Of a stretch of DNA of 64,000 bases, positions 32,983 through 33,110 are shown piece by piece. Numbering within the stretch: the first letter of the stretch is position 1; every line of letters begins with the position of its first letter. Source of the stretch: Bacteroidaceae bacterium (GTDB lineage Bacteria > Bacteroidota > Bacteroidia > Bacteroidales > Bacteroidaceae). Under the pieces are notes generated by a model that made no database searches, was not told the DNA's origin, and was given only the letters and a program-made list of their open reading frames with translations. The stretch lies in NCBI GenBank assembly GCA_045657945.1, contig JAZOUB010000041.1, positions 43,987 through 107,986 on the forward strand, in the 5' to 3' direction. The translations under genes and the position numbers were made by a program.

Positions 32983-33110
32983 ATAAGGGATTAAGGGTGA
33001 TTAAGGGCTCTAAGGGTAATTAAGGGGGTTAAGGGCTCTAAAGGTTCTAAGGTGCTAACATTAGTTTCCCTTAATGTTCCTTAGTCCCCTTAGTGTTCCT
33101 TTCACTCTTT
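32983..33110. repeat. Composite TAAGG array: 8 direct TAAGG(G) units then 3-4 inverted CCTTA units, 9-10-bp phase
   Basis: TAAGG starts at 32984, 32992, 33002, 33011, 33021, 33030, (33039 TAAAGG) and 33048. CCTTA starts at 33069, 33079, 33088 and (33098). Confidence 0.7.

Follow-up and report, generated by a model that had tools for sequence, protein, structure and literature searches.

Phased TAAGG arrays in a gut Bacteroidaceae genome: probable solo arms of a small mobile cassette around a four-helix-bundle gene

Results

Three intergenic arrays in the window

The window, i.e. the whole stretch of 64,000 nucleotides analysed here, belongs to genome G000, a 2.57-Mb assembly in 55 contigs with 46% G+C. 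It holds three arrays of short phased units (Table 1), all of them intergenic and situated 155 bp (array 1), 95 bp (array 2) and 13 bp (array 3) upstream of the start codon of a minus-strand gene. In array 1, reading of the sequence between 32984 and 33102 placed TAAGG units at 32984, 32992, 33002, 33011, 33021, 33030 and 33048, a TAAAGG variant at 33039, the centre CTAACATTAG at 33055-33064, and inverted CCTTA units at 33069, 33079 and 33088 followed by a degenerate CCTTT at 33098, with 8-10 bp from unit to unit. Its G-arm comprises six GGG runs separated by loops of 5, 7, 6, 7 and 4 nt. The preliminary description of this DNA had proposed a phased composite of direct and inverted units at 32983-33110 that has no coding potential, might form a long imperfect hairpin, and has homologous copies at 35812-35912 and 61466-61520. 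These points were all borne out. The composite was recovered from the letters (seven exact units and one variant, then three units and one degenerate), no ORF of at least 50 aa was found within array 1 except a shadow frame, and the two arms can pair with a folding energy of -36.5 kcal/mol (z = -2.85 versus shuffles). Arrays 2 (35815-35912) and 3 (61467-61518) share the grammar of array 1, in the order G-arm, AAAACATTAG, C-arm. Ten TAAGG/CCTTA words occur in 109 bp of array 1, where the genome-wide rate predicts 0.13 (Poisson P = 4e-16; multiplication by the genome length gives about 1e-9); over the whole window TAAGG is not over-represented (73 matches versus 86 expected).

Table 1. Arrays and neighbouring features in the window.
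Feature	Position	Strand	Remarks
Sulfatase gene, 536 aa	31218-32828	-	Downstream of array 1
Array 1, G-arm	32983-33054	+	7 exact TAAGG(G) units and 1 TAAAGG variant, 8-10-bp spacing
Array 1, centre CTAACATTAG...	33055-33068	none	AACATTA pairs with TAATGTT of the first C-arm unit (apical stem)
Array 1, C-arm	33069-33110	+	3 CCTTA units and degenerate CCTTT; on the other strand the units read AACA(C/T)TAAGG
Intrinsic terminator hairpin with T run	33137-33167	-	Adjoins array 1; retained in G010, where array 1 is absent
Secreted protein gene, 586 aa, T9SS-type C-terminal end	33957-35717	-	Downstream of array 2
Array 2	35812-35912	+	3-unit G-arm, centre AAAACATTAG, C-arm of about 5 units
PQ-loop gene	35913-36290	-	3' end abuts array 2
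M60-like peptidase gene, 1310 aa	57521-61453	-	Downstream of array 3
Array 3	61466-61520	+	4 TAAGG units and 1 CCTTA unit; divergent intergenic region

Array 2 is enclosed by A6 and T5 and adjoins the PQ-loop stop codon at 35913-35915. Its hairpin (-35 kcal/mol) has a z of -1.9, which is not beyond the usual threshold versus shuffles. By its position between A6 and T5, right after a stop codon and ahead of the next promoter, array 2 looks like a bidirectional terminator. Array 3, which probably lies in the leader of the M60-like peptidase gene, has almost no GGG runs and folds no better than shuffles (z = -0.7); a 23-mer of it was found identical in genome G010. At gathering thresholds Rfam recognised only a tmRNA in the window and left the arrays unmatched, and none of the three was called in a terminator and promoter scan. 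A scan of the whole of G000 for at least three units within 25 bp, a criterion that array 2 does not reach, returned eight clusters, among which only arrays 1 and 3 are true arrays and the other six are chance groups of three or four words. Arrays 1-3 are the sole true arrays in G000.

Between array 2 and the TACATTTG (-7-like) box of the 586-aa T9SS gene we observed a C7 tract at 35784-35790 (G7 on the coding strand), and C tracts occupy the same position in G010 (C7), G006 (C9) and G083 (C10). On the other side of this gene, 33110-33957 consists of 850 bp without a long ORF, made of modules of 140-280 bp that recur on at least eight other G000 contigs; several of these copies sit close to sequences that match the shared T9SS C-terminal domain, and the modules are thus repeated behind other T9SS genes. 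No degenerate four-helix-bundle pseudogene was detected in 33110-33957 by tblastn.

Distribution and gene context of the array family

Among 61 genomes of the same genus, 23 carried a three-unit TAAGG pattern, and a reversed-pattern control was near zero; the genomes compared are metagenome-assembled genomes (MAGs) of 55-100% completeness. When one genome per species was scanned across all bacteria and archaea, matches were nearly confined to herbivore-gut Bacteroidales MAGs, labelled by NCBI as 'Bacteroidaceae bacterium' (the genus of the window) and 'Alistipes sp.'/Rikenellaceae. A phage origin of the arrays seems unlikely, with only six pattern matches among 2.9 million viral contigs. Within the genus, G061 stood out with 116 three-unit matches on more than 15 contigs, versus 0-18 in other members.

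The fetched loci contained 164 non-redundant arrays, 131 of which had both flanks and were used for context counts based on a long-ORF heuristic. The arrays are restricted to intergenic DNA: 126 of the 131 lie between genes and five overlap an ORF call, against a background of 85% coding sequence (P = 2e-96). The intergenic arrays divide into 73 tandem, 34 convergent and 19 divergent contexts, and convergent contexts are enriched (22 expected, P = 0.008). In tandem contexts CCTTA was found on the sense strand in 48 cases and TAAGG in 25 (P = 0.0095), which is a mild bias and no rule. Many arrays begin 0-20 bp from a stop codon or overlap one, and both TAAGG and CCTTA contain a stop triplet. 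The neighbouring genes are unrelated to each other and include uvrA, chrA, purL, macB-like permeases, hydF and a MATE pump. The convergent order of G-arm, ACATTAG/CTAATGT centre and C-arm seen in arrays 1 and 2 recurs in G011, G006, G022, G083, G063, G069 and G007, so that the centre of array 1 is conserved in relatives; many other arrays of relatives are one-armed direct runs, for example of 14 units in G006.

It had been proposed in the preliminary description that the G-rich strand is always the plus strand and that the element always lies 5' of a minus-strand gene. This is true of the three window copies and does not extend to the family. The more specific suggestion of a regulator array at promoters of T9SS or secreted-protein genes is not supported by the contexts, with 34 of the 131 arrays convergent, 73 tandem, unrelated neighbours and a 48:25 orientation. 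Random scatter, copies inside genes and lack of conservation in related genomes had been regarded as arguments against the element; the copies were found outside genes and conserved in relatives, and they obey no positional rule relative to genes. A genome-wide regulon was rejected as well, given that G000 has just three copies, too few for an enrichment test in this genome, and that genus-wide contexts oppose it: no fixed position and orientation at promoters of a regulon was found. Since the arrays occur in tandem, convergent and divergent contexts alike, show only a mild strand bias and have unrelated neighbours, a promoter or an operator specific to T9SS genes is unsupported.

Arrays flank genes for four-helix-bundle proteins

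Our comparison did reveal a link between the arrays and one gene family. Specifically, in G021, G025 and G027 two composite arrays flank an ORF of 186 aa inserted between uvrA and chrA, which scored 61.8 with TIGR04258 (cut-off 40) and 26.6 with TIGR02436 (cut-off 24) and matched Pfam 23S_rRNA_IVP below the cut-off of that model. The uvrA-chrA site is filled in these three genomes and in G082 and G004; in G000 the gap measures 40 bp with an ordinary hairpin, i.e. the site is empty. In G021 (L031 6840-6860 and 7720-7726, G021:C61) array units provide the last codons and the stop of uvrA as well as the stop of chrA. The uvrA product ends …KEKLKQD* in G021 versus …KEKLV* in G000, and the cassette has thus remodelled the 3' ends of both neighbours and left the genes unbroken.

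Nearly all of the 26 four-helix-bundle genes inspected in the genus have short-period tandem arms, the exceptions being one truncated gene fragment (G009) and three type-2 loci that have arms on a single side. The arm units differ with the gene lineage. Type 1 genes, defined by at least 64% identity to P0002 (the G021 protein), carry TAAGGG/CCCTTA arms, and other lineages in the genus carry TCTTTAAGGAC, TAGGG/CTAAG or AAAGGGC units. Genes with TCTTTAAGGAC-type arms, a second lineage, were observed in G084, G081, G078, G064 and G070 (L153-L156, L163) between the same two conserved ORFs, the upstream one ending in ...MDYYFN* and the downstream one starting with MRNFDYL(K/R)DLG.... Across the 61 genomes, TAAGGG-type arrays occurred in 12 of 14 with a type 1 gene and in nine of 47 without one (Fisher P = 1e-5).

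A type 1 gene is found exactly at the site of array 2 in G083, G063, G061, G007 and G069. In G083 polyC and ATTAGTTAAATAATGTTAAAAAG are followed by an array, a leader that contains a TAnnTTTG box, the ORF, two consecutive arrays and the PQ-loop gene; at the equivalent site of the window the outer flanks are alike and there is a single array. Judged by these flanks, array 2 is the solo state of the cassette site that is filled in the five relatives. No type 1 gene was found in the window or anywhere else in G000, and its three TAAGGG arrays are therefore orphans, which we file as solo arms and not as cassettes; at a MAG completeness of 83-93% this orphan status is not certain. The only four-helix-bundle gene of G000 (C41:8638-9171, minus strand, outside the window) is 55% identical and has TAGGG/CCTAG arms. 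At C41:9185-9300 we observed a palindromic arm array of TAGGG/CTAAG...CCTTAG/CCCTAG that ends 8 bp before the start codon of this gene, and no array was evident after its stop codon.

Searches of full-length cassettes against Pfam and NCBIfam gave no transposase or recombinase domain, and the four-helix-bundle protein is the only ORF. An AlphaFold model of the type 1 protein, built from an alignment of six sequences, is all-helical, but its mean pLDDT of 49 makes it too unreliable for fold comparison. A sequence search of the PDB gave no significant match.

Complementary arms in several lineages

Clean cases came from G082, from one Alistipes MAG and from three further families; in them the two arms are reverse complements of each other, which puts the ORF in the loop of a long stem. 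The duplex of upstream and downstream arms had z values of -3.2 to -10 versus shuffles in five lineages with unrelated unit sequences. In other Bacteroidales families we found the arms GTGGGAC/GTCCCAC, TAAGGAC/GTCCTTA and TTAATGAC/GTCATTAA, and in Rikenellaceae MAGs GCTAGTAAGG/CCTTACTAGC, GAATGGCA/TGCCATTC and GGTTATTAGGGG/CCTCTAATAACC. Short-period tandem or dyad arms lie beside the gene at about two-thirds of 17 TIGR04258 loci from other Bacteroidales families and at about three-quarters of 12 loci from Rikenellaceae MAGs. A stem of complementary termini around an ORF of the 23S_rRNA_IVP family is present in the cassettes of relatives; the window copies consist of the stem only.

Instability at orthologous sites

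The number of G-arm units at the orthologous site of array 2 is three in the window, about eight in G007, 13 in G010 and 14 in G006, with identical outer flanks. These conserved flanks consist of polyC and ATTTAGTTAAATAATGTTAAAA on one side and of AAAACATTAG, the C-arm and the PQ-loop gene on the other. Array 1 varies in its presence. In G010 the array and about 120 bp alongside are replaced by about 40 bp between flanks that are 94-99% identical, and the sulfatase gene without array 1 upstream is otherwise 94% identical; the difference between the two genomes is a replacement, not a clean insertion. G012 retains array 1, with other units.

Arrays 1 and 2 bracket a variable segment, namely 33110-33957 and the 586-aa gene, which is missing at the syntenic locus of G007. 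There the order is sulfatase gene, IS-like ORF, four-helix-bundle gene, one array and PQ-loop gene. The IS-like ORF (240 aa, N-terminus MNKDKYVFAQLVEFLD...) was noticed at L035 1690-2860 (G007:C14), between the sulfatase and four-helix-bundle genes.

Mobility of a sister cassette

G213 (Rikenellaceae) contains three cassette copies of 705-708 bp with 94-96% identity among them. The copies end sharply (ATGGCAT...ATGCCAT), are flanked by unrelated sequence and each occupy a tiny intercistronic gap. For one of the copies the related genome G225 has the empty site, in which 4 bp separate the stop codon of the upstream gene from the start codon that follows. We detected no target-site duplication at the three G213 copies or in the filled/empty pair of G213 and G225. 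In the TAAGGG lineage no copy was caught at two loci with identical ends, and mobility is thus demonstrated for the sister lineage only.

On the reverse strand of G221 (L200, G221:C109, about 940-1490) we observed a first arm (ATGGCATTTAATGGCATTCGGGC...) that is identical to the one at the G213 cassette site. What follows this arm is a segment the size of an ORF, unrelated and on the opposite strand, and a second arm is absent. The G213-type arm may be associated with other cargo in G221.

Discussion

A proposed selfish cassette and its probable solo arms

The window arrays are, in our judgement, probably solo arms of a mobile cassette resembling the intervening sequences (IVS) of 23S rRNA, which would either have stayed behind when the ORF was lost or have been copied without the ORF. 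In sister genomes the four-helix-bundle gene of 185 aa (TIGR02436 with the TIGR04258 suffix; Pfam 23S_rRNA_IVP) is bracketed by arms of tandem 9-10-bp units, with TAAGGG and a spacer on one side and the complement CCCTTA on the other, and in this model it would form a small selfish cassette. The arms meet at a short conserved stem (AACATTAG/CTAATGTT) and thus base-pair in the manner of the stem that closes an ORF-bearing 23S rRNA IVS. Slippage would be the likely cause of the gain and loss of units. Arms would be tolerated only between genes, where they may often supply the stop codon of a neighbour or a terminator-like hairpin, and their main local effect may be transcript termination or insulation, not gene-specific control. 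Recombination between arms could then delete or swap the intervening DNA, leaving solo arrays like those of the window and turning over the genes between them. A weak point of the solo-arm reading is that one-armed direct runs are not predicted by a simple picture of stem remnants.

Alternative explanations

Cooperative binding of a regulator or nucleoid protein to one face of the DNA, and thereby control of downstream secreted-enzyme genes, would explain why a period of 9-10 bp, close to a helical turn, recurs across lineages with unrelated units, and the mild strand bias as well as the position of all three window copies upstream of minus-strand secreted-enzyme genes would agree with it. We nevertheless consider such a cis-regulatory role quite unlikely, as more than a quarter of the intergenic arrays (34 of 126) are convergent, where there is no promoter, many adjoin stop codons, and the neighbouring genes are functionally unrelated. 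The distance to the start codon is not constant in the window (155, 95 and 13 bp), G010 has no array 1, a single site holds between 3 and 14 units, about two-thirds of same-genus genomes have no array, and G000 is devoid of the cognate four-helix-bundle gene. Array 1 probably does not control the sulfatase gene. Selection at each locus for a functional RNA, in which the arms, once transcribed, pair into a long imperfect helix serving as terminator, stabiliser or RNase III site, appears very unlikely. Array 1 does fold better than shuffles, the hairpin of array 2 is well placed between the PQ-loop stop codon and the next promoter, convergent contexts are enriched, and RNase III cuts the stems of 23S rRNA IVS (PMC4990558). 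However, the z values of arrays 2 and 3 are below the usual threshold, Rfam and the terminator scan recognised no array, a good canonical terminator already lies beside array 1, and the sense strand folded worse than the antisense strand in seven of eight composite arrays in tandem context, which are few and non-independent cases.

The arrays could also be autonomous short tandem repeats of the LSSR/STRR type that originate in permissive intergenic DNA and spread there by slippage and gene conversion, with the gene as a mere neighbour or one that prefers to land there. For at least 85% of arrays the fetched locus lacks a four-helix-bundle gene (the gene is present in six of 100 loci), one-armed direct arrays are common, and G061 combines its 116 matches with a single type 1 gene, all of which would fit this view. 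Independent slippage, however, would not be expected to give every gene lineage a unit of its own, present on either side in inverted orientation, and the G213 copies bring their own arms with sharp ends to new loci. The empty sites in G000 (uvrA-chrA) and G225 are free of arrays, and the arrays were thus not pre-existing landing pads there. Taken with the association of gene and arrays in the Fisher test, this makes autonomous repeats unlikely. Extremely unlikely is a G-quadruplex, in which the G-arm (GGG N4-7)n on the plus strand would affect replication or transcription: the six GGG runs of array 1 do fit the canonical G3N1-7 motif, but sister units without G runs (GAATGGCA, TTAATGAC, TCTTTAAGGAC) keep the same architecture and array 3 is almost free of GGG. 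Loops of 6-7 nt, moreover, yield weak quadruplexes.

A purely selfish model does not account for the persistence across lineages of a period of 9-10 bp, about one helical turn, and we therefore keep a protein reader in consideration. The four-helix-bundle protein itself might recognise the arms in a sequence-specific manner, one unit per helical turn and possibly as a multimer like Avd, and might drive copying, homing or maintenance of the cassette, which we regard as doubtful. If true, the cassette would be a mobile element without a transposase, recombinase or reverse transcriptase of any known class, and the rRNA intervening sequences and the solo arrays of the window would be its relics or non-autonomous copies.

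Relation to known systems

The cassette preferred here as the source of the arrays resembles the 23S rRNA IVS of Coxiella burnetii and Leptospira (PMC4990558), in which a small ORF of the same family (23S_rRNA_IVP/S23p) lies within complementary termini that form a long stem, and which is sporadically distributed in a way that suggests horizontal spread and is regarded as selfish. In ORF-bearing IVS the S23p ORF is located within a 28-bp terminal stem cut by RNase III (PMC4990558). In contrast to IVS, the cassette described here is found between protein-coding genes and not in helix 25 or 45 of the rRNA, its termini are expandable arrays of 8-10-bp units instead of a unique 28-bp stem, and the window copies are without any ORF. 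Enterobacterial IVS also exist in ORF-less versions that consist of the hairpin only. Genes for four-helix-bundle proteins have furthermore been reported inside cas operons (PMC3936711), and insertion at such places fits a selfish cassette.

Among described repeats of Bacteroidales the nearest is BrickBuilt, a minisatellite-MITE of Porphyromonas gingivalis (PMC4596501), which is likewise always intergenic, has a tandem array within inverted ends, and varies in copy and unit number among strains. It differs in its 23-nt unit (9-10 bp here), its leader and tail subunits, its measured bidirectional promoter activity and the lack of a known associated gene, and it has no sequence similarity to TAAGG arrays. 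In the REP/REPIN systems with their RAYT genes, as here, a gene present once and flanked by its cognate repeats is accompanied by a far larger number of short palindromic repeats between genes, and repeat sequence and gene lineage vary together. The gene flanked here, however, is all-helical, matches only four-helix-bundle models and does not encode a recognisable HUH/Y1 transposase, and the repeat is a tandem array of 10-mers and not a single hairpin of 20-40 bp. Like MITEs, the arrays have arms that are inverted complements and occur in many copies (164 in the fetched loci, with up to 116 matches per genome), but no target-site duplication was seen and no transposase-encoding parent element was found.

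Long simple-sequence repeats with units of 5-11 nt were reportedly described by Mrazek et al. in 2007, and the cyanobacterial STRR are said to be of a similar kind. Both share with our arrays the dispersed, intergenic and lineage-specific occurrence of tandem arrays of short units and a strong length polymorphism. They have not been described as paired inverted arms around a gene family, whereas the unit tracks the gene lineage here. The element had not been recognised as a described one in the preliminary description, and our literature search (TIGR02436, PF05635, four-helix-bundle protein, repeats) likewise gave no description of a pairing of this gene with arrays.

Implications

S23p-type genes have been puzzling since the 1990s, and thousands of them carry the annotation 'four helix bundle protein'. 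If our reading holds, these genes for the 'S23p/23S rRNA IVS protein' would be the cargo of a widespread and so far undescribed small mobile cassette, whose ends are expandable arrays of 8-10-bp units and whose gene-less remains are strewn between the genes of gut Bacteroidales. Odd phased repeats that are often flagged as regulatory sites would then be explained, and annotators would be cautioned not to take such arrays for operators or CRISPR-like loci. The arrays would also mark hot spots of gene gain and loss, as in the window, where a T9SS cargo gene is bracketed by two of them. Finally, the gene and its arms would offer a concrete protein-DNA or protein-RNA pair for a mechanism of mobility without a known enzyme.
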